64,000 nt of DNA from a virus (lineage: Duplodnaviria > Caudoviricetes): IMG/VR virus record IMGVR_UViG_2728369500_000003, positions 1-64,000 of that record; one strand, 5' to 3'. The translations under genes were made by a program, and so were the position numbers. Numbering within the stretch: position 1 is the first letter of the stretch; every line of letters begins with the position of its first letter. The notes beneath the pieces are model-generated. The model saw only the letters and a program-made list of their open reading frames with translations. It ran no database searches and had not been told where the DNA came from. This document shows positions 9,605 through 56,478 of the stretch, piece by piece.

Positions 9605-10250
9605 TGGCTTAGCTCTTTTGCAGAGACAATTAGAGGACAGAAATCTTAAGAAAGCCAGCACAAGGGCCCTAAATAAAGCAATTGCAACAGGCAACACCCT
9701 TTACAGGCGAATGATTTCTGAATATTATAACATCAAACCTATTGATATCAGAAATTCTATTGTGCTGAAAAAAGCAACCTATTCACAGAATGAGGCCTCT
9801 ATCTCAGGGAATTTCAAACCCCTGAGCTTATCCAGGTTTAATCCGCAGTTTGTTAATGGCCGAAGTGTTATTTCTATTCGCTCGGTGAGAAATAAAGAAA
9901 CAGGAAGAAGAACTTTACAGCAAACAGCCCGAAATGCAAGGAAAAACGAGCAAGCCGGTGGAGGCGTTTCTATTGAGATCAAAAAAGGAAGCAGAAAAGT
10001 CATCCCTTATGCTTTCTTAACGAAATCACAGGCCAATACCGGGGTTGAAAAGCAGATTTTTGCCAGAGGAAAATACGCCGGAGGAAAATTCCAGAAAGCA
10101 AAAGAAAGATTCCCCATTACAGCCATGAAAACCACTTCTGTTTTCGGGATTTTGACTCATGACCCTATTCAAAGAAAAATAGAAACAGAATCTAAAGAAA
10201 CCCTGCAAAGAGAGTTTGAAAGACAAATTTATTTATTAACAAGAAGATAA
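9573..10250 (+). CDS. Minor tail/neck protein (gpZ-like)
   Basis: Basic protein, KKASTRALNKAI motif; homologue at 53451..54128. Confidence 0.65.
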   Translation: MIQVTIAHSSNGLALLQRQLEDRNLKKASTRALNKAIATGNTLYRRMISEYYNIKPIDIRNSIVLKKATYSQNEASISGNFKPLSLSRFNPQFVNGRSVISIRSVRNKETGRRTLQQTARNARKNEQAGGGVSIEIKKGSRKVIPYAFLTKSQANTGVEKQIFARGKYAGGKFQKAKERFPITAMKTTSVFGILTHDPIQRKIETESKETLQREFERQIYLLTRR

Positions 10251-10304
10251 CATCCTGAAACGGCACTGCTCAAAAGGAAATCAGACACTCTCTTAAGTGT
10301 TTTT

Positions 10305-10351
10305 TGTCAAATATTTAGCAAAGATACTATGGAATCCAATCCTTTGCTTTG
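10305..10351 (+). promoter_or_regulatory. Putative late promoter (capsid)
   Basis: TGTCAAATATTTAGCAA, 22 bp, TTGCTTTG, 4 bp, ATG. Confidence 0.65.
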
Positions 10352-15537: not shown

Positions 15538-15616
15538 TCCTTTTTTTATCGCGTAATAATAAAATTAAACACACAAAACCCACTAAAATTACGATTCAGT
15601 CCGTTAAAAACATTTA

Positions 15617-15655
15617 GAGCCTGTTTAAATTTTCTACTCAAATTTAAACAGGCTC
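15617..15655. repeat. Perfect 16-bp inverted repeat with 7-nt loop (possible terminator or IS-end relic)
   Basis: GAGCCTGTTTAAATTT-TCTACTC-AAATTTAAACAGGCTC; left arm repeated at 19146-19161. Confidence 0.85.
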
Positions 15656-15779
15656 CTTCAAGTTCATTGTTGTTATGAACCTTGAATTCCATTTTCTGAT
15701 CTTTGTATTGTTTGGTGTCGTCTTTTAGGCTGACCGTTATCTCACGCTTGGCGTTCTGTCTTTCCGTTGTTTGTACTCG

Positions 15780-16943
15780 TCATTTGTTTCCTTTTGCTCT
15801 GTTGTGTGTCTTGCATAACATTTGGCAATTTTTCGTGTTAGTTGCACCGCCTTTACTCCAAGCTGTTACGTGGTCTGCGTCCATCTCTGCGAGTTTCCAA
15901 ATTTTAGTTTTATTGCTGTCATGTCCTAATGCACATAATGGGCAATTTGAAACACTCTTTTTCTCTGCTTCTGCTGTCTGAATAGTATAAACAGATTTTT
16001 TTGTCGCATCGTTAAAAACCCGAATTGCTAAAAGTTTGGTATCTGTTGAACCGCCAAGAACATACTCAAAAATCCCTTTATGATTTTCCACATAGGGGTC
16101 AGCATAAAGTGTTTTAACTTTTTCGGAAACTTCTTGTGGGTTGTATGGTTGCTTTTTGTAGGTTTCAAAAAGTCGTCCCCATTCAAGTCCACGCATTTCA
16201 CTTTCTACGTCTATAAATACAGTTGAAACCCAGTCAATAACGCTATTAAAATAAGTTTTTAACTCGTTTATGTCAGTGTCATAACGGTGTTTGCTCATAT
16301 AACCGCCTATATTCCCTTTGCTTACCCAGTCAAGTGCTCTTTCTAAAAACTCTTGTCTGTTTGCACTACCCGAAACGTAAGCACTCCATTTTTGAATATT
16401 GGCATTTTGTGTGTTACTAAATTCTTCCTTGCCAAGTGTTACGAAAGGGCCAGAATAAACAGCATTTAGTAATTCTTGATTGTTAAGTGGAACACCAGTA
16501 ATATTGATTGTCCTAAACCATTCTTTAATTTCACTTTCAGTTCCTTCGCACTCGTAAATTAAAAGTTCTGTATTCAATATTTTTTCTTGCTTGTCCTTTG
16601 CAATACCTCCAAAATATTGCTCCATTCCGCTCTCGTCTTTGATTGCAAATTTGTTAGTTACAAATCTGCCAAAACTTGTAATGCGTTGTTGGCCATCTAA
16701 AACTTCAAACTTGTCTGCACTTAATGTATTGAAATAGATTAGTCCTAATGGATAACCTTTTAAAATGCTTTCAATTACTGCAACATCTCTTTTGCCGTCT
16801 GCATAAATATAATTACGTTGATACTCCGGCTGAATTGTCAGTTTGCCTGACAAACCAAACAGTCCTTTGCCTTCAAGTTCGTTGTAAACAAAGCCATCGC
16901 AAATGGCTTTTACTGTTATATCTGTTCTAAGAGTAGTTTTCAT
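15780..16943 (-). CDS. DUF262 (ParB/Srx-like, GmrS-type) plus C-terminal HNH nuclease
   Basis: [26 protein letters not shown]262 motifs; [29 protein letters not shown] motif. Confidence 0.9.
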
Positions 16944-18110
16944 TTACTTTTTATGTTTTATTAAAACTCTTGCGTAGGGAACTTCAACTACACCATCCAA
17001 AATCATATATAAATCCCCATCAACTGCACCACGCTTCTGAATTTCCTTTCTGTATTTTTTATGTTCAGTTTTATACGGTTGAACTCCGACTTCCAACCCT
17101 GAATTTGAAATACCTAAACCAATAATATCAAATTGATCGGGGTTATACTTATTTAAGAAACTGATAGGAACACCCATTGCACCATCGTAATCGCTTGGTA
17201 TTGCATCAGTAAAGGGAACATCAATAGCATCAAAGTTTTCATATTTCTGATATTCTTTCCCTTTTACTTCTTTGTGTTTGCTGAATTTTATATTGTCTTG
17301 TTTAGTCATTAAAGGTAAAGGATCGTGTCGCCTGCCGTGGTCAAGATTTGTGTACCAACCAGTACCAGCAACACTTATCATTTTCTTACCATCACTACTT
17401 ATTTCAACTTCTGTTCCGCTCAATTCATAGTCATCTGGAACAAAAAAAGTCATATTCTTACCGTTTATTCTTTGATTGAACCTAACTCCAGTCCATAGTT
17501 TATTTTGCTTTATAAGTGAAAAAATATCTTTGTAAGTTATAGCATTCATATTACCGATGATAACAAAATTCTTTTCAGCCTCAATAATCCAAGCAACAAA
17601 TTCACGGAATAATGAGAAAGGAGGATTGGTAATTATTATGTCCGCCTCATTTCTAAGTTTTTTAATTTCTTCACTTCTAAAATCACCATCACCTTTTAAG
17701 TAAGACCACTCCAAATCATTAACATCAATTTTCCCATCGCCTGATTTGTCACGTGTTAAAGTGAAAATTTTACCATTTTGCTTTGTTTTATATTCGTCAA
17801 ACTGTGGGTCGTTTACTTCAAAAAGTGTCGGTTGATAGTTGTTTTTGATCTTTTTACTTTCAGGTGCGTAACTCGTGCTAATTAGTTTTTTAAGTCCGAA
17901 GCGTTCAAAATTTTGAGCAAAGAACTTTGTGAAGTTGCTCCATTCAGGATCGTCACAAGGTAACAATATGGTTTTACCCTTAAAAACTTTGGGATTATAT
18001 TCAAGGTAGGCAGACATTTCTTTTTCAATATCATGGTATTGAGTATAAAACTCATCCATTTTTGCCTTATTCGCATTCCTTAAATTTTTATTCTTTGCTG
18101 TATTCGCCAT
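16944..18110 (-). CDS. Adenine-specific methyltransferase, EcoRI-methylase family
   Basis: DEFYTQY, ILLPCDDPEWSNF, GDGDFRS, ITNPPFSLFRE motifs. Confidence 0.9.
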   Translation of the reverse strand: MANTAKNKNLRNANKAKMDEFYTQYHDIEKEMSAYLEYNPKVFKGKTILLPCDDPEWSNFTKFFAQNFERFGLKKLISTSYAPESKKIKNNYQPTLFEVNDPQFDEYKTKQNGKIFTLTRDKSGDGKIDVNDLEWSYLKGDGDFRSEEIKKLRNEADIIITNPPFSLFREFVAWIIEAEKNFVIIGNMNAITYKDIFSLIKQNKLWTGVRFNQRINGKNMTFFVPDDYELSGTEVEISSDGKKMISVAGTGWYTNLDHGRRHDPLPLMTKQDNIKFSKHKEVKGKEYQKYENFDAIDVPFTDAIPSDYDGAMGVPISFLNKYNPDQFDIIGLGISNSGLEVGVQPYKTEHKKYRKEIQKRGAVDGDLYMILDGVVEVPYARVLIKHKK

Positions 18111-18181
18111 TTCTATTTATCTCGTCTTTATATTTTTAATGTCGGTTCTGTCTTGCGGTGTCGTTTTTACGCTTGCCTGTA

Positions 18182-18308
18182 ATAACGTTTCGAAGCTTTA
18201 TTAAGCAACTGATTTTAACCCACTTAATTTCATTTAACACTAACTTCATTTGAAAACCAAATGTTCAATTTAGCATTGAACCCGCCATTTTGCCAAACTG
18301 CTATTAGC
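18182..18308 (-). other. attC-like cassette junction between protease and methylase
   Basis: Minus strand GGCTAAT (contains the protease stop) AGCAGTTTGGCAAAATGGCGGG ... CGAAAC GTTAT; about 125 bp; arms pair only partly. Confidence 0.55.
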
Positions 18309-18975
18309 CGATGTTATTCTTTAAAATAATTTCTTTGACGTGTTTTATGTTATAAGTTATTACTATTCCAGAATTTTCAAGGTATTTAATTTCCCCTAAT
18401 GGTGTGTCAGTAAAATTAGTTTGGGGTAAGTAGCCAGAAACAACACTAGTTAATACCATTTTATTTGTTGAGTTTTCATAGTAACCAACAGGTCCTCCAG
18501 AAAATCCTGGATTGTTATGACCATCTAATAACATAATCGAACTACCATTTGGTTCATGAATATATCCAGAAACAATACATTTTTTGACAAGTGGAATAGG
18601 AAAGTTTGTTTTATTTGTAAAACTTTGATTTAAATTGTAAGGAAAACCTAGAAAGAAAATGTCACCACCAATAACTATATCCTCATCTAACAAAAAAGGA
18701 ATGTCTTGAACGACTTTTTGTTGTAATTTAAATACAGCAATATCAACCCCTGATATTTCTGAAATATTTATATTTAAGGAAAATTCAATAAAACCATTAT
18801 CAGTACGTATTTTGAAGTTTTTAATTTCTCCATTTTTTGCATTTGGAAATAAATGTTTTGCTGTAATTAGAAATTGGTTATTATTCCATGTAATTATGAA
18901 ACATGTCCCTACTGAAGTTTCAAAAATAATATTAAATGTGTTCGTAAAAAATCCTAAAGGTATTGATTTTTCCAT
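18304..18975 (-). CDS. Trypsin-like serine protease
   Basis: LITAKH (His), DIAVF (Asp), NNPGFSGGPV (Ser); no obvious signal peptide. Confidence 0.85.
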   Translation of the reverse strand: MEKSIPLGFFTNTFNIIFETSVGTCFIITWNNNQFLITAKHLFPNAKNGEIKNFKIRTDNGFIEFSLNINISEISGVDIAVFKLQQKVVQDIPFLLDEDIVIGGDIFFLGFPYNLNQSFTNKTNFPIPLVKKCIVSGYIHEPNGSSIMLLDGHNNPGFSGGPVGYYENSTNKMVLTSVVSGYLPQTNFTDTPLGEIKYLENSGIVITYNIKHVKEIILKNNIG

Positions 18976-19079
18976 AGTTTTTTTTTATAATGTTGTCTAA
19001 CTCTTTTATACTCGCTATAAACTAGCGACTATACATCTTAGTTGTGATGAATAGTCGCTACCAAGTAGCTAATTTTTAT

Positions 19080-19087
19080 CAAAAATA
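19080..19087 (-). promoter_or_regulatory. Bacteroidota -7 box that could drive the antisense cargo
   Basis: TATTTTTG on the minus strand matches TAnnTTTG, upstream of a GTTAGAC core at 18995-19001. Confidence 0.45.
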
Positions 19088-19223
19088 CTTTTTTTTTATT
19101 TTCCTACAAGTCATCAAACGGATTTTTATTTGTTGAATACTTTTAGAGCCTGTTTAAATTTTAGTGGAAAATTTTGTTAAAGCATTTCCGTGAACTTCCT
19201 ACAAAATCCATTCAGGAGAAACC

Positions 19224-52034: not shown

Positions 52035-53482
52035 AATTAAATTTACTCGATAAAGTAGTTTCTTATTTCAGTCCGCAGTGGGGACTAAAAAGAATACAGC
52101 GGCGTAATGCAATGGATATCCTACAAAGAGGGTATGAAGGAGCACGAAAAGACCGCCGTACCAAAGGATGGAATGTGAATGATTTTGAACAGGCCGCAAA
52201 ACTAGCCGAAATTAAAACCCTGAAAAACAGAAGCAGGGACCTCTACCGAAACAACCCCTATTCTTTCCGGGCTCACAATTCCATTGCCAACAATACCACC
52301 GGAAGAGGCATTGTTCCGGCCATTAAAAATGAACTGCTAAAAAAAATCTGGAAGGACTGGGCCCATCAGACCTCAGTGGATTTTGACGCCAATTGTAATT
52401 TTTATGGATTACAGAACCTTTGCATGAGAACACTCTCTATGCATGGTTCAGTACTCATCTTAAGAATTAAAACCAATAATAAAGAACATATTCCATTAGA
52501 ACTCAAGGTGGTTTCCACTAAATTTTTAGACCTCTCAAAAGATACCATAAAAACTTCCACCGGGTCATATATTTCCGGGGGAATTGAGTTTGCTTCCACC
52601 GGAAAAAGGAAAGGATACTGGATTTACGATAAGGATCCGGAGCTGGAATATTCTAAAAGCACATTTTGGAAAGATCAGGATGTGATCCATCTCTTTTTCC
52701 AGGACGAACCCGGGCAGATCCATGGAGTTCCATTTGGTTCTCCCTCCATGATGAGCTTAAGAGATTTTGACGATTATTCGGATGCGCAGCTGGTAAGACA
52801 AAAGATCGCCTCCTGCTTCTCCATATTCATCACCAAGACAGATGCTGAAATGATCGGGGCAGACACCCAGGATTATGAAGAGTTTGACAGGGTGGAACCA
52901 GGGCTCATTCAGACCTTAGAGCCAGGCAAATCGGTCACTTTTGCTTCCCCTCCTCCCGCAGACGGGTATGGCGAATATTCCAAAAACGTCCTTACAGGTA
53001 TTTCAGCAGGCTACGGCATGAGCTATGAAGCCATGACAGGAGATTTAAGCCATGTCAATTACTCCAGCGGACGCATGGGGTGGTTAGAATACCAAAGAAT
53101 GATTGAGACATGGCAGAATTTTATTCTCATCCCTAAATTATGCGCGAAAGTATGGCTTTGGTTTGTAGAGGCAGGAAATTTATTAGGCATTCTTCCCAAA
53201 GACACGCCTAAAACAGTGGAATGGACCGCCCCGGGTAGAATGATGATTGACCCTGTAAAAGAAGTGAACGGACTTTTAGCACAGGTAAGAGCCGGATTTA
53301 TGAGCTGGCAGGAAGCCGTAAGACTTTTAGGCTATGCCCCGGAAGAAATTCTGGAAGAGATGAAAATTTCTAAAGAATTATTTGACAAGGCAGGCCTTCA
53401 CCCAAAATCAGATCCCCGATATGATGCGGTAAATCTAAAAAATCAGAGTAATGATACAGGTAACAATAGCACACACCAGTAA
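52025..53482 (+). CDS. Lambda-family portal protein (intact)
   Basis: RSRDLYRNNPY, QIHGVP, GDLSHVNYSSGRMG, IDPVKE motifs. Confidence 0.95.
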   Translation: MSLELNLLDKVVSYFSPQWGLKRIQRRNAMDILQRGYEGARKDRRTKGWNVNDFEQAAKLAEIKTLKNRSRDLYRNNPYSFRAHNSIANNTTGRGIVPAIKNELLKKIWKDWAHQTSVDFDANCNFYGLQNLCMRTLSMHGSVLILRIKTNNKEHIPLELKVVSTKFLDLSKDTIKTSTGSYISGGIEFASTGKRKGYWIYDKDPELEYSKSTFWKDQDVIHLFFQDEPGQIHGVPFGSPSMMSLRDFDDYSDAQLVRQKIASCFSIFITKTDAEMIGADTQDYEEFDRVEPGLIQTLEPGKSVTFASPPPADGYGEYSKNVLTGISAGYGMSYEAMTGDLSHVNYSSGRMGWLEYQRMIETWQNFILIPKLCAKVWLWFVEAGNLLGILPKDTPKTVEWTAPGRMMIDPVKEVNGLLAQVRAGFMSWQEAVRLLGYAPEEILEEMKISKELFDKAGLHPKSDPRYDAVNLKNQSNDTGNNSTHQ

Positions 53483-54128
53483 TGGCCTCAACTTTTTGCA
53501 GAGACAATTAGAGGACAGAAATCTTAAGAAAGCCAGCACAAGGGCCCTAAATAAAGCAATTGCAAAAGGTAACACCCATTATAGGCGAATGATTTCTGAA
53601 TATTATAACATTAAGCCTATTGATATCAGAAATTCTATTGTGCTGAAAAAAGCAACCTATTCACAGAATGAGGCTTCTATCTCAGGAAATTTCAAACCCT
53701 TGAGCTTATCCAGGTTTGGTCCACAGTTTGTTAATGGCCGAAGTGTTATTTCTATTCGCTCGGTGAGAAATAAAGAAACAGGAAGAAGAACTTTACAGCA
53801 AAGAACCCGAAATGCAAGGAAAAACGAGCAAGCCGGTGGAGGGGTTTCTATTGAGATCAAAAAAGGAAGCAGAAAAGTTATTCCTTATGCTTTCTTAACA
53901 AAATCATCGGCAAATACCGGAGTTGAAAAACAAATTTTTGCCAGAGGAAAATACGCCGGAGGAAAATTCGAGAAAGCAAAAGAAAGATTCCCCATTACCG
54001 CCATGAAAACCACTTCTGTTTTTGGGATTTTGACTAATGACCCTATTCAAAGAAAAATAGAAACAGAATCTAAAGAAACTCTGCAAAGAGAGTTTGAAAG
54101 ACAAATTTATTTATTAATAAGAAGATAA
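53451..54128 (+). CDS. Minor tail/neck protein (gpZ-like)
   Basis: Homologue of 9573..10250. Confidence 0.65.
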   Translation: MIQVTIAHTSNGLNFLQRQLEDRNLKKASTRALNKAIAKGNTHYRRMISEYYNIKPIDIRNSIVLKKATYSQNEASISGNFKPLSLSRFGPQFVNGRSVISIRSVRNKETGRRTLQQRTRNARKNEQAGGGVSIEIKKGSRKVIPYAFLTKSSANTGVEKQIFARGKYAGGKFEKAKERFPITAMKTTSVFGILTNDPIQRKIETESKETLQREFERQIYLLIRR

Positions 54129-54154
54129 CGTTTCGCTGTTTTGCAAAGTGGCGG
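54125..54154 (-). other. attC-like half-site at the left edge of the R-M insert
   Basis: ATAAC-GTTTCGCT-GTTTTGCA-AAGTGGCGG; homology with prophage 1 stops at GATAAC. Confidence 0.65.
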
Positions 54155-54255
54155 ATTGTATGCACAACTGTTGATACGAAGCAGTTCGCATTCATACACC
54201 TCACATTGGCGAGGCATTATAGGCAGGCTACCTGTCAGCGTACTATTGACCGACC

Positions 54256-55227
54256 TTAACCAATAAACAACTGATTTGAGAAAAGAGAGTGAGGTGCGGA
54301 TACTAAATTAATATCAAACTTTAAAGATGGCTCAATCCGAGAACTTGCATTATGAATACGGAAAGAAATTTGCCAACCTTCACTTAACGTTACTAAAATA
54401 GTTGTCTTTGAATTATCTTGGTAAACTACTTCAATCAAACGGTTTGGTAGTTTCAGACGCTGAATTTTTGCTTTTGGTTTTACGCTTTCAAAAGGTAAAT
54501 TCAATGTTCCGTGTAAATTATAGGCTTGAATTTCGACCTTGTTTTTACCTTTTATGACTTTGTAAAAATCTTGATTACCAATCAAATACTTAATTAAATT
54601 TTCGGCTACAATTCCAGGGTTTTCGTTATCCAAACGCAATAATTCTTTCTTAAAAGCATCCAAAACAGGAACATAAACGGATGTATGATAATCGCCTAAG
54701 GTATCCCATTTTTGGGTTGCTTTGCTTGCTGTTCTCAGCTTTGCCAAATTATCGAAAACAGGTTTGACTTCTTGGAAATATTCAGCAGAACAAGGAAAGC
54801 CTAACCACTTTTGACCAAAATCAATATCGTTTGACAAACGAGAATGTTTTACGGCTCTATGATTGTTTTTTGCCGAAACTCCTATTTCCCATTTTTGCAA
54901 TGAGCGAATAGCCAAAACATCGCGAACATCACCGGTTTGACCAGCTTTGTCGGCTACAATCTCGAGTTGTAGAATATCTTCATCACTAATTCCGTTTGAT
55001 AAACGTGGCTCAATATCAAGTAAAAAATTTACCGCAAAACTTGCCACTAATTTGTAATGACTTTGTTCCTTTTCGTCAAAGCTTGTAAAACATTTCAAAG
55101 CAGTTTTGTAAGGTTCATTTTCAACAAATGAAACAGAAGTTAGCACTCTTAAACGTTCTAAAAACTCGATTAGCAAAGCATATTCAAATGCTTTTCCGTT
55201 TATGGTTTGGGTTGCAATTTTTGACAT
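54256..55227 (-). CDS. HaeIII-family type II restriction endonuclease
   Basis: GKAFEY, GQTGDVRDVL, GVSAKNNHRAVKHSRLS, RIHNASS..SLKFDI motifs; coupled to an M.HaeIII-like gene. Confidence 0.85.
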   Translation of the reverse strand: MSKIATQTINGKAFEYALLIEFLERLRVLTSVSFVENEPYKTALKCFTSFDEKEQSHYKLVASFAVNFLLDIEPRLSNGISDEDILQLEIVADKAGQTGDVRDVLAIRSLQKWEIGVSAKNNHRAVKHSRLSNDIDFGQKWLGFPCSAEYFQEVKPVFDNLAKLRTASKATQKWDTLGDYHTSVYVPVLDAFKKELLRLDNENPGIVAENLIKYLIGNQDFYKVIKGKNKVEIQAYNLHGTLNLPFESVKPKAKIQRLKLPNRLIEVVYQDNSKTTILVTLSEGWQISFRIHNASSRIEPSLKFDINLVSAPHSLFSNQLFIG

Positions 55228-56318
55228 TATACTGTTACTCGGTTTACAATTTCATTCAGTTTTTCAATTACAACATTTCCATTGTATTCAGTAGAAATAG
55301 GTTTTTGAACAACTTTATTAATAACGTTCAAATGATCTAAATCAGCATAAATCTTTTCTGCCAAAATCACACCCATTCTAACAGGAACAGCATTTCCAAT
55401 CATTTTGTAACCAGCGGATACACTGCTATATTCAAATGAAAAAGTATCCGGAAAAGTTTGAATTCTTGCACATTCCCGAACACTTAATCTTCGATATAAA
55501 TGTTCTTGACCTTTCACAAATTCACGCAAATTTTGTTCAATAAGTTTCATTTTTGGAGCTTGTGGGTGGATTGGTGCATGACGACCACCAGCTTGGATTG
55601 TAAATGACACTTCATCCCAAGAGCGAACCCTATTTCTTGACATAAACATCGACGAAAAACCACCAATCATATATTCATGGTTTGATACTTTGCAGTCTTT
55701 TCCATTGGTATAGTTCCCTTCTTTTGCAGGTAAGGCAGTATCTTTTAAATCACTAATTGCTTTTTCAAGAGTAATTTTGTTTTCTAACGTTGTGGGTCTT
55801 GGAAAGGTGAATTTAATTCCCAAATCTTTACGATAACCTATAAAAAAAACACGTTTCCTATCTTGTGGAACGCCATAATCTGAGACATTCAATAACTGAA
55901 ATGACAAGTCGTAGCCTATATCAGTAAACATCTGTTTTATGTTTGCTAACGCTTCTTTATGAGCAGGCAACAACATTCCAGACACATTTTCAGCCAAGAA
56001 AAATTTAGGTTTCTTATCTGCTAAAATTCGCATAAATTCATAAAAAAGCTGACCTCTTTTATCTGCAATTCCTCGCTTTGAACCAGCCTCCGACCAGCTT
56101 TGACAAGGAGGTCCGCCAATAATTCCATCACAATCAGGAACTTCATTTGATGGAATATCGACAATACTTCTTCTATCTAAAATTGTGTTTTTATGGTTCT
56201 TTTCATAGGTTGCCCAAATTTCTTTATCATATTCATTTGCCCAAACGACATCAAAACCAGCTTTCTCAAACCCTAAATCAAGACCACCTGCACCTGCAAA
56301 AAACGATACGACTTTCAT
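55227..56318 (-). CDS. C5-cytosine methyltransferase, M.HaeIII-like (probably GGCC)
   Basis: FAGAGG, GGPPCQSWSE, AENV, QDRKRVF; TRD FMSRNRVR..HPQAP..GQEHLYRRLSVRECAR resembles M.HaeIII as recalled. Confidence 0.92.
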   Translation of the reverse strand: MKVVSFFAGAGGLDLGFEKAGFDVVWANEYDKEIWATYEKNHKNTILDRRSIVDIPSNEVPDCDGIIGGPPCQSWSEAGSKRGIADKRGQLFYEFMRILADKKPKFFLAENVSGMLLPAHKEALANIKQMFTDIGYDLSFQLLNVSDYGVPQDRKRVFFIGYRKDLGIKFTFPRPTTLENKITLEKAISDLKDTALPAKEGNYTNGKDCKVSNHEYMIGGFSSMFMSRNRVRSWDEVSFTIQAGGRHAPIHPQAPKMKLIEQNLREFVKGQEHLYRRLSVRECARIQTFPDTFSFEYSSVSAGYKMIGNAVPVRMGVILAEKIYADLDHLNVINKVVQKPISTEYNGNVVIEKLNEIVNRVTV

Positions 56319-56344
56319 ACCTTGGAAATTTAATTATTCAACAA

Positions 56345-56352
56345 CAAACTTA
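56345..56352 (-). promoter_or_regulatory. -7 box of the R-M cassette
   Basis: TAAGTTTG on the minus strand, 26 bp before the methylase ATG. Confidence 0.6.
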
Positions 56353-56403
56353 CTAATTTAAAAACATTTCGCCCAAATTATGAGCGGGAAAATTGACCAG
56401 TCT

Positions 56404-56429
56404 ATAACAAGAGTTTTGCATAATGGCGG
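56404..56429 (-). other. attC-like half-site at the right edge of the R-M insert
   Basis: ATAAC-AAGA-GTTTTGCA-TAATGGCGG, an imperfect direct repeat of 54125-54154. Confidence 0.65.
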
Positions 56430-56431
56430 TG

Positions 56432-56478
56432 TGTCAAATATTTAGCAAATATAATTTGAATACGAATTCTTTGTTTTG
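56432..56478 (+). promoter_or_regulatory. Putative late promoter (capsid)
   Basis: TGTCAAATATTTAGCAA, 22 bp, TTGTTTTG, 4 bp, ATG. Confidence 0.65.

Follow-up and report, generated by a model that had tools for sequence, protein, structure and literature searches.

In integrons, gene cassettes are recombined between the G and the TT of a folded bottom-strand attC site, and secondary sites of the attG type (GWT) outside attI also accept them. Insertion of cassettes at attG or other secondary sites is among the subjects treated in PMC12901181; two reports (10.1101/2024.07.02.601686, 10.1101/2024.07.02.601719) describe, among other things, many anti-phage systems encoded by integron cassettes, and pieces of classical integrons, including clusters of attC sites, are known from some phages (Qi et al. 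2023, PMC9892861). The Bacteroidota had been held to be nearly devoid of integrons, IntegronFinder surveys of Bacteroidetes having returned only In0 elements and one Salinibacter integron (PMC9024848). Here we analyzed a 64,000-nucleotide stretch of viral DNA (positions 1 to 64,000 of IMG/VR record IMGVR_UViG_2728369500_000003, Caudoviricetes; hereafter the window), in which one prophage carries an inserted restriction-modification (R-M) gene pair. We consider it probable that this insert is a gene cassette from an integron-like system common in the bacterial family, captured by the phage. The locus joins defence cassettes, phage carriage and a Bacteroidota cassette system. Integron defence cassettes and phage integron fragments are already known; the cassette system itself appears to be undescribed, and our literature search found no paper describing such cassette arrays with Xer-like recombinases.

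Self-comparison of the window revealed two tandem sister prophages with long shared blocks that are 93-97% identical and with two large indels between them. At the first of these, hotspot A, prophage 2 holds 2302 nt (54130-56431) versus 53 nt in prophage 1 (10252-10304), and on both sides of it the prophages are 96-97% identical. At the second, hotspot B, ~3.6 kb in prophage 1 (15546-19210) stands against 47 nt in prophage 2. Hotspot A is flanked by a Minor_tail_Z-like head gene and a protease-capsid fusion gene, and its features are as follows.

53451..54128, plus strand: phage head-morphogenesis gene, 225 aa, Minor_tail_Z-like (PF06763, E 1.1e-8)
54125..54129, minus strand: GTTAT, candidate secondary target in the phage (GATAAC is common to prophage 1, L063 and L067, after which the sequences diverge)
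54125..54193, minus strand: 3' part of an attC-like site, comprising distal loop, L' box, 5-nt bulge and R' box (half-scan 36.0 bits; consensus positions about 66-134)
54194..54214, minus strand: copy of the phage's intergenic terminator hairpin in inverted orientation (25/27 identical to L063 975-1001, where it is forward)
54217..54224, plus strand: predicted first bases of the R-M cassette, TTATAGGC, in the attC direction (from complementarity to R'')
54256..55227, minus strand: HaeIII-family restriction endonuclease, 323 aa, intact (PF09556, E 3e-98, profile 1-298/298)
55227..56318, minus strand: C5 cytosine DNA methyltransferase, 363 aa, intact (PF00145, E 2e-97, profile 1-323/324)
56402..56430, plus strand: 5' half (R''-L'') of the cassette's own attC, cut after L'' at the phage junction (5'-half scan 32.8 bits)
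56432..56448, plus strand: phage promoter-like 17-mer at the right edge of hotspot A (four forward copies in the window)
10252..10304, plus strand: insert-free allele of hotspot A in prophage 1 (different terminator hairpin; allele type also in L067)

A sequence-only reading of this DNA had described the insert as bounded by attC-like half-sites in direct repeat, and the motifs and coordinates that it quoted for the two prophages and the repeats were all recovered. The repeat copies lie at 54125-54154 and 56404-56429, and their 17-nt cores match at 15/17 positions; ATTATAGGC is found at 54216-24 on the plus strand and GTCTATAAC at 56400-08. When position-weight scans of half-sites were built from 16 family elements, the 3' half (L'-R', 25-nt spacing) at 54125-54156 on the minus strand scored 36.0 bits and the 5' half (R''-L'', 21-nt spacing) at 56404-56430 on the plus strand scored 32.8 bits, while scores elsewhere in the window did not exceed about 6 except at the attC site 18178-18312 and where 54129-54155 is read on the other strand. 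A covariance model built from the solitary sites of 16 genomes assigned 16.8 bits (E 0.12) to 54125..54193, matching the 3' half only, and this part also gave short BLAST matches (query 2278-2335) to attC sites of many relatives. The half-sites were thus borne out and the direct repeats were not: the two are opposite halves on opposite strands, and their likeness reflects the palindromic nature of the site family, of which they represent opposite arms. The orthologous site in locus L191 and the unrelated site in locus L019 resemble the left part to the same degree. In total, the window contains one full attC-like site (71.8 bits) and two half-sites. The 5.09-Mb genome contains three matches to the 17-mer pattern and none to its reversed control, and all three copies are within prophage accessory inserts, two of them flanking the R-M insert and the third at 18282-18298 (minus strand) in the hotspot B insert. 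A tRNA-derived att site was also considered for the motif and rejected, as a tRNA scan of the window returned none.

The two genes of the insert overlap by one base, and both are antisense to the phage late genes. Their full-length profile matches identify the pair, at the level of prediction, as a Type II R-M system of the HaeIII family. Nuclease homologues with 86-95% aa identity, several of which come from Flavobacterium, are named HaeIII family by their sources, and the close ones are scattered over many different chromosomal places. Like the HaeIII (GGCC) Type II R-M system, the pair combines full-length RE_HaeIII and C5 methylase profiles with tight coupling, the methylase being first; it differs in being apparently packaged as a mobile cassette with an attC-like site, and its recognition sequence is a prediction from the family. 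A DNA search of 400 family genomes with the cassette gave a best match of 74% identity, which lacked an attC.

Orthologous cassettes were found at loci L191, L192 and L197-L199, where the DNA is 87% identical to that of the window from 56429 down to the cassette start. They keep a full attC on the methylase side, antisense to the genes, which scores 41.4 bits in L191/L192 and 60.4 bits in L197-L199. Because this full site has the same side and strand, 56404-56430 is what remains of the attC that belongs to the cassette. Relative to that site, the R-M genes are in antisense orientation, as they are in the L191 and L197 cassettes, a correction to the earlier account; the cassette must therefore carry its own promoter. 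A further correction concerns the minus-strand inverse core that had been placed downstream of the nuclease: GCCTATAAT is the cassette start itself, abutting the inverted copy of the phage's own terminator hairpin. The start at 54217 is complementary to R'' of the L191 orthologue at 6/7 variable positions and to its own R'' (56399-56408) at 5/7, a level that only 1.5% of nTT 10-mers in the window reach. In L197 2325-4001 (also in L198 and L199), ~0.9 kb containing two small open reading frames (ORFs; 79 and 168 aa) interrupts the methylase gene and leaves pieces of 128 and 138 aa; this looks like an insertion into the gene.

The half-sites belong to a widespread element. The motif was present in 88/401 family genomes in ~140 copies, versus 5 for the reversed control, and the flanks of 30 copies revealed a conserved element, invariable in length, whose start is a few bases downstream of an ORF stop codon. 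It consists of a YAAC box, a 4-nt spacer, the 17-mer, ~70 variable nt, an imperfect complement of the 17-mer, a 5-nt bulge and GTTAK, amounting to ~125 nt with the layout R''-L''-loop-L'-R'. Alignment of 16 copies yielded one long stem with 26 predicted pairs, 6 of which show compensatory changes, and a bulge before R'. The predicted structure has the make-up of an attC site, namely, an imperfect palindrome with R'', L'', L' and R' boxes, AAC...GTT ends and unpaired bases. The covariance model retrieved arrays, the window site 18178-18312 and the sites of the orthologous R-M cassettes, which makes them one site family.

In five relatives, the covariance model detected 11 to 70 or more co-oriented, clustered sites, with ORFs between successive sites in the array stretches inspected. 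Within arrays L054-L058, R'' was complementary to the preceding R' at no fewer than 6/7 variable positions in 18/23 consecutive pairs, compared with 5.7% of other pairs; on this pairing analysis, such R''/R' complementarity is the classic signature of circular cassettes cut at a GTT core. At least one site occurs in 65/149 sampled genomes of the host genus, and in G371 and G431 of this genus, arrays adjoin homologous recombinases. The family-wide attC-like site, the arrays and the R''/R' complementarity support the earlier proposal that an integron-like cassette pool of Bacteroidota is the source of the defence genes.

The sites also fall into a second length class of ~199 nt, against 137 nt with flanks for the first, owing to an extra internal hairpin in the loop. 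Members are found at L007 1487-1685 and L027 117-315 and among many array sites of 195-204 nt, and the class is common in large arrays. Genome G276 has 70 or more sites and two arrays (C1:1196741-1332677, ~136 kb, and 2399168-2418362), and it carries three identical copies of a 316-aa recombinase (1316254, 2395051 and 2418516) in or beside the arrays, besides the array-head recombinases.

A divergent tyrosine recombinase gene stands at the end of every array inspected (G276, G306, G039 and G175), as well as in G371 and G431. Co-oriented cassettes with a divergent integrase gene were therefore observed in six relatives and not in the genome of the window. These arrays resemble sedentary chromosomal integrons, such as the Vibrio superintegron with its VCR-type attC sites, in the co-oriented units of an ORF plus a ~125-nt imperfect palindrome with R''/L''/L'/R' boxes and a GTT core, in cassette-specific R''/R' complementarity, in high site similarity within a lineage, in the divergent tyrosine recombinase at the head and in antisense cassettes with self-promoted addiction-type modules. 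They differ in the recombinase, which is XerA-like, has an N-terminal extension and falls below the TIGR02249 cut-off. The XerA-type model was matched in one stretch (204-220 bits), and TIGR02249 was matched in two stretches that skip model positions ~180-240 (185-194 bits versus the cut-off of 265). Alignment to IntI4 (2a3v) was likewise split, with IntI4 residues 198-237, the integron-specific insertion, lacking a counterpart. The search for the motif near a tyrosine recombinase with the IntI extra helix, as advised by the sequence-only reading, thus yielded arrays and a recombinase, and the extra domain was missing. Since the recombinase lacks the IntI additional domain (I2 helix region), the system does not qualify as an integron in the strict sense: judged from its sequence, the element works like an integron cassette, and membership fails on the integrase. 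In the recombinases L054:7199-8302, L055:1004-2098 and L056:7500-8507, the N-terminal extension covers 60-95 residues before the Xer-like core and matched no model.

In the 5.09-Mb host genome, the covariance model found no array and one full site only, and the proteins matched by the integron-integrase model were XerC/D-like or phage integrases only, none of which reached the cut-off. With neither an array nor an array-type recombinase in this host, the cassette must have been acquired in another host or by means of an enzyme acting in trans, which agrees with the recombinase in trans that had been postulated. Movement of these cassettes is presumably the task of the array-linked Xer-like recombinase.

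The left junction of the insert was then compared with the insert-free alleles. The prophage 1 copy of the head gene is 96.8% identical up to 54129, and the TAA stop of the gene falls within ATAAC, which is GTTAT on the minus strand. The junction lies between 54128 and 54130, inside this shared GTTAT, and the attC R' consensus is also GTTAT. Prophage 1 reads GAAGATAAC followed by ATCC at 10243-10255, and prophage 2 reads GAAGATAAC followed by GTTTCG at 54121-54135. The breakpoint that had been proposed at a bottom-strand GTT indeed coincides with the GTT of the attC R' box.

Hotspot A is empty in the metagenomic phage relatives L063-L066, whose head gene shows 86% aa identity and in which the stop-codon pentamer is followed by one base, the hairpin, a T run and the promoter-like motif. 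A second empty allele with a different hairpin is present in prophage 1 and L067. Prophage 1 is accordingly empty, as had been claimed, and the closer empty allele is the hairpin type of L063. Alignment of the hotspot across related prophages, which had been suggested earlier, gave empty alleles in prophage 1 and L063-L067 and a Type IIG R-M system in L061, a third sister prophage lying inverted in the same genome (G000:C1:845000-862000). The L061 insert (L061 4520-7330) encodes, at the identical nucleotide of hotspot A, an 863-aa antisense Type IIG R-M enzyme that combines nuclease, N6 methylase and specificity domains; here, the L063-type hairpin is forward, and the enzyme, which has its own bidirectional terminator, is located between the pentamer and the hairpin. 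Searches with the head-gene protein gave no match in genome contigs and only the sister prophage in the viral collection, no copy of the site DNA was found in 239 other genomes of the genus, and the portal protein is <40% identical to those of known phages.

The inverted hairpin of prophage 2 lies between the attC 3' part and the cassette start, and its 25/27 match to L063 includes the 8-nt loop. Among 287 kb of examined loci, its 16-mer is confined to this phage family, and the genome contains only two copies; an exact 16-mer scan of all species genomes gave, among the matches listed, unrelated phyla, as expected at random. We also considered the hairpin as an L'' variant of the attC family and dropped this idea, the hairpin being absent from ~55 kb of arrays and from the other loci examined. 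At the right edge, the 17-nt motif TGTCAAATATTTRGCAA occurs at 10305, 19224, 56432 and 61733, that is, at the right-hand border of each hotspot in either prophage, versus 0.06 copies expected, and it is probably a phage late promoter or activator site. Accessory DNA in both hotspots always stops directly before TGTCAAATATTTRGCAA.

Four junctions can be distinguished in the prophage 2 insert. Two are located on the phage pentamer: at one, the attC L' is joined to GTTAT and then to the phage head gene, and at the other, the inverted phage hairpin is joined to TTAT and then to the cassette. The remaining two, attC loop/hairpin at 54193/54194 and L''/promoter motif at 56431/56432, are non-specific. 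Within 1-2 nt, a single phage position corresponds both to the left junction and to the point at which the inverted terminator meets the cassette start. One reciprocal exchange at GTTAT plus one non-specific two-break event therefore accounts for all four junctions.

Hotspot B provides a second case of cassette DNA in these phages, with the following features in prophage 1.

18178..18312, minus strand: full-length attC-like site, L' arm decayed (71.8 bits, E 5.6e-14 with the covariance model)
18304..18975, minus strand: trypsin-like peptidase, 223 aa, the cassette ORF before attC 18178..18312 (PF13365, E 2.5e-10)
15780..18110, minus strand: EcoRI-like adenine methylase (388 aa; PF13651, E 1e-128) and GmrSD_N/HNH nuclease (387 aa; PF03235 and PF01844)

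Across the 5.09-Mb genome, the site 18178..18312 is the sole full-length attC match of the covariance model, and the peptidase ORF stops 5 nt before its L'' box. The full attC cassette in hotspot B of prophage 1 independently shows that the phage lineage has acquired cassette DNA. The stretch 15780..18110 is absent from prophage 2. A 21-nt direct repeat was noticed at the flanks of the hotspot B insert (window 15603-15670 and 19144-19165), the left-end copy being one arm of a perfect 16-bp hairpin, which hints at a duplication produced during insertion.

We propose that the cassettes of this system, each consisting of one or two genes and a folded ~125-nt site, would be moved by the Xer-like recombinase at the array head. 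With the phage in a recombinase-bearing host, the attC R' box (GTTAT) may have exchanged strands with the same pentamer of the phage, which overlaps the head-gene stop and is situated upstream of the terminator and the late promoter; cassette DNA would in this way enter the terminator-promoter gap. A second, non-specific rearrangement would have generated the present order of 3' attC part, inverted terminator, cassette and truncated 5' attC half. Two orders of events would fit equally well, i.e., canonical insertion of a cassette circle followed by an inversion of ~2.2 kb, or capture of a fragment of an array, after which 88 nt between the two GTTAT cores were inverted. Once established, the R-M system may protect the lysogen against other phages and stabilise the prophage.

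Not all observations favour such a capture. The spacer helix of the two halves is complementary at only 1/4 positions, a weak test given that L197's own site is also imperfect there, and halves with a non-complementary spacer helix could either come from different sites or represent a decayed site. The attC remnant beside the nuclease gene folds no better than shuffled sequences (z 0.26). CA precedes the cassette start where a clean exchange with the phage predicts TG, rendering the crossover point uncertain, and CA is found in L197 as well. An un-rearranged intermediate was not found among the relatives examined, a role of the array-linked Xer-like family in the recombination is putative, and the pentamer shared at the junctions would equally permit a microhomology-mediated join. 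A rival account is ordinary moron traffic, by which illegitimate or short-homology recombination, the route of many phage accessory genes, would have placed the DNA at the terminator-promoter gap, with the attC fragments as passengers from the donor. The insert does have the attributes of a phage moron: it is missing in close relatives, it occupies the terminator-promoter gap, and its antisense orientation implies its own promoter. As at other phage defence hotspots, an autonomous antisense module lies between terminator and promoter, and the sister prophages hold none, a HaeIII-type or a Type IIG R-M system. This explanation would also suit the two clearly non-specific junctions, the position in the gap upstream of a repeated promoter-like motif and the presence of the same R-M pair at many chromosomal places without a recognisable attC. 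Moreover, the insert of L061 at the same site contains no attC, and hotspot A therefore also takes DNA by other routes. Yet the R' core of an attC half scoring 36 bits is the exact position of one junction, the first bases of the cassette stand next to the reciprocal end of the phage, and random breakage would not account for this pairing; in addition, the second hotspot of the sister prophage carries a full attC cassette. Remnants of a cassette recombination site and a junction on the crossover core are also what set this module apart from known morons and defence hotspots. We thus regard moron traffic without a cassette recombinase as unlikely, though it deserves some weight.

The repeats themselves might be read as ends of an insertion sequence (IS) or transposon, or as transcription terminators, in keeping with the many draft-genome copies situated, like repeats in general, no more than 200 nt from a contig end, and with an element that forms a hairpin after stop codons. 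However, ORF and domain searches revealed no transposase in the 54130-56431 insert, the consensus has no T run after the stem, and the element matched no Rfam family (eight loci searched, E up to 1). Furthermore, the array copies are co-oriented, one per ORF, and exhibit cassette-specific R''/R' complementarity, which is foreign to IS ends and terminators, rendering this reading highly improbable. Hardly any credence is left for a chance resemblance of the insert ends to attC in AT-rich intergenic DNA. The covariance model alone, with E values of 0.12 at the left and 1.4 at the right end of the insert, would allow it, but the half-sites reach 33-36 bits against the low background of the window outside the two exceptions given above, the motif is found only three times in 5.09 Mb, always in prophage inserts, and the orthologous cassettes carry the full site.

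Capture of a cassette by the phage can also be compared with what is known of integron DNA outside its arrays. As in attG (GWT-type) insertion, the R' of a folded attC apparently recombined with a short, GTT-containing non-att sequence, and attC is found at one end only; the differences reside in the target, a phage stop-codon pentamer, in the inversion of the terminator and of one attC part, and in a non-IntI enzyme. The integron fragments described in phages (PMC9892861) are similar in that parts of chromosomal arrays, self-promoted toxin-antitoxin cassettes among them, reside in temperate phages. They belong to the classical IntI systems of Vibrio, Shewanella and E. coli recognised by IntegronFinder, versus a non-IntI pool of Bacteroidota in our case, where an R-M system is carried at a defined hotspot of the late operon and can be compared with empty alleles.

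Our results support the view that phages can draw ready-made defence genes from a cassette pool. More tentatively, and with somewhat less than even confidence, temperate phages might be regular secondary targets of the system, with GTTAT at the ends of late-operon genes serving as landing sites and defence cassettes flowing both ways. If so, phages would be a main vehicle of the cassette pool between species, and the pool would be a main source of phage-borne defence genes. The locus also concerns a cassette system whose recombinase is devoid of the domain held essential for attC recombination. The three sister prophages and their metagenomic relatives form a natural experiment in which the same target is empty, holds an attC cassette or holds another R-M system, and the junctions, together with the orthologous cassettes and their intact sites, are concrete substrates for testing cutting by the Xer-like enzyme.

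The site family was also encountered on plasmids. An attC-like site is present on plasmids of Flavobacterium, Myroides, Empedobacter, Riemerella, Bacteroides and Sphingobacterium. On a Salmonella IncC plasmid (L188; NZ_OQ658822.1, 129818-129862), we found a 45-nt 5' part of an attC of this family between IS3 copies, with a fragment of ere(D), a macrolide esterase gene, ~150 nt away, which suggests that this resistance gene may have departed from a Bacteroidota cassette context.

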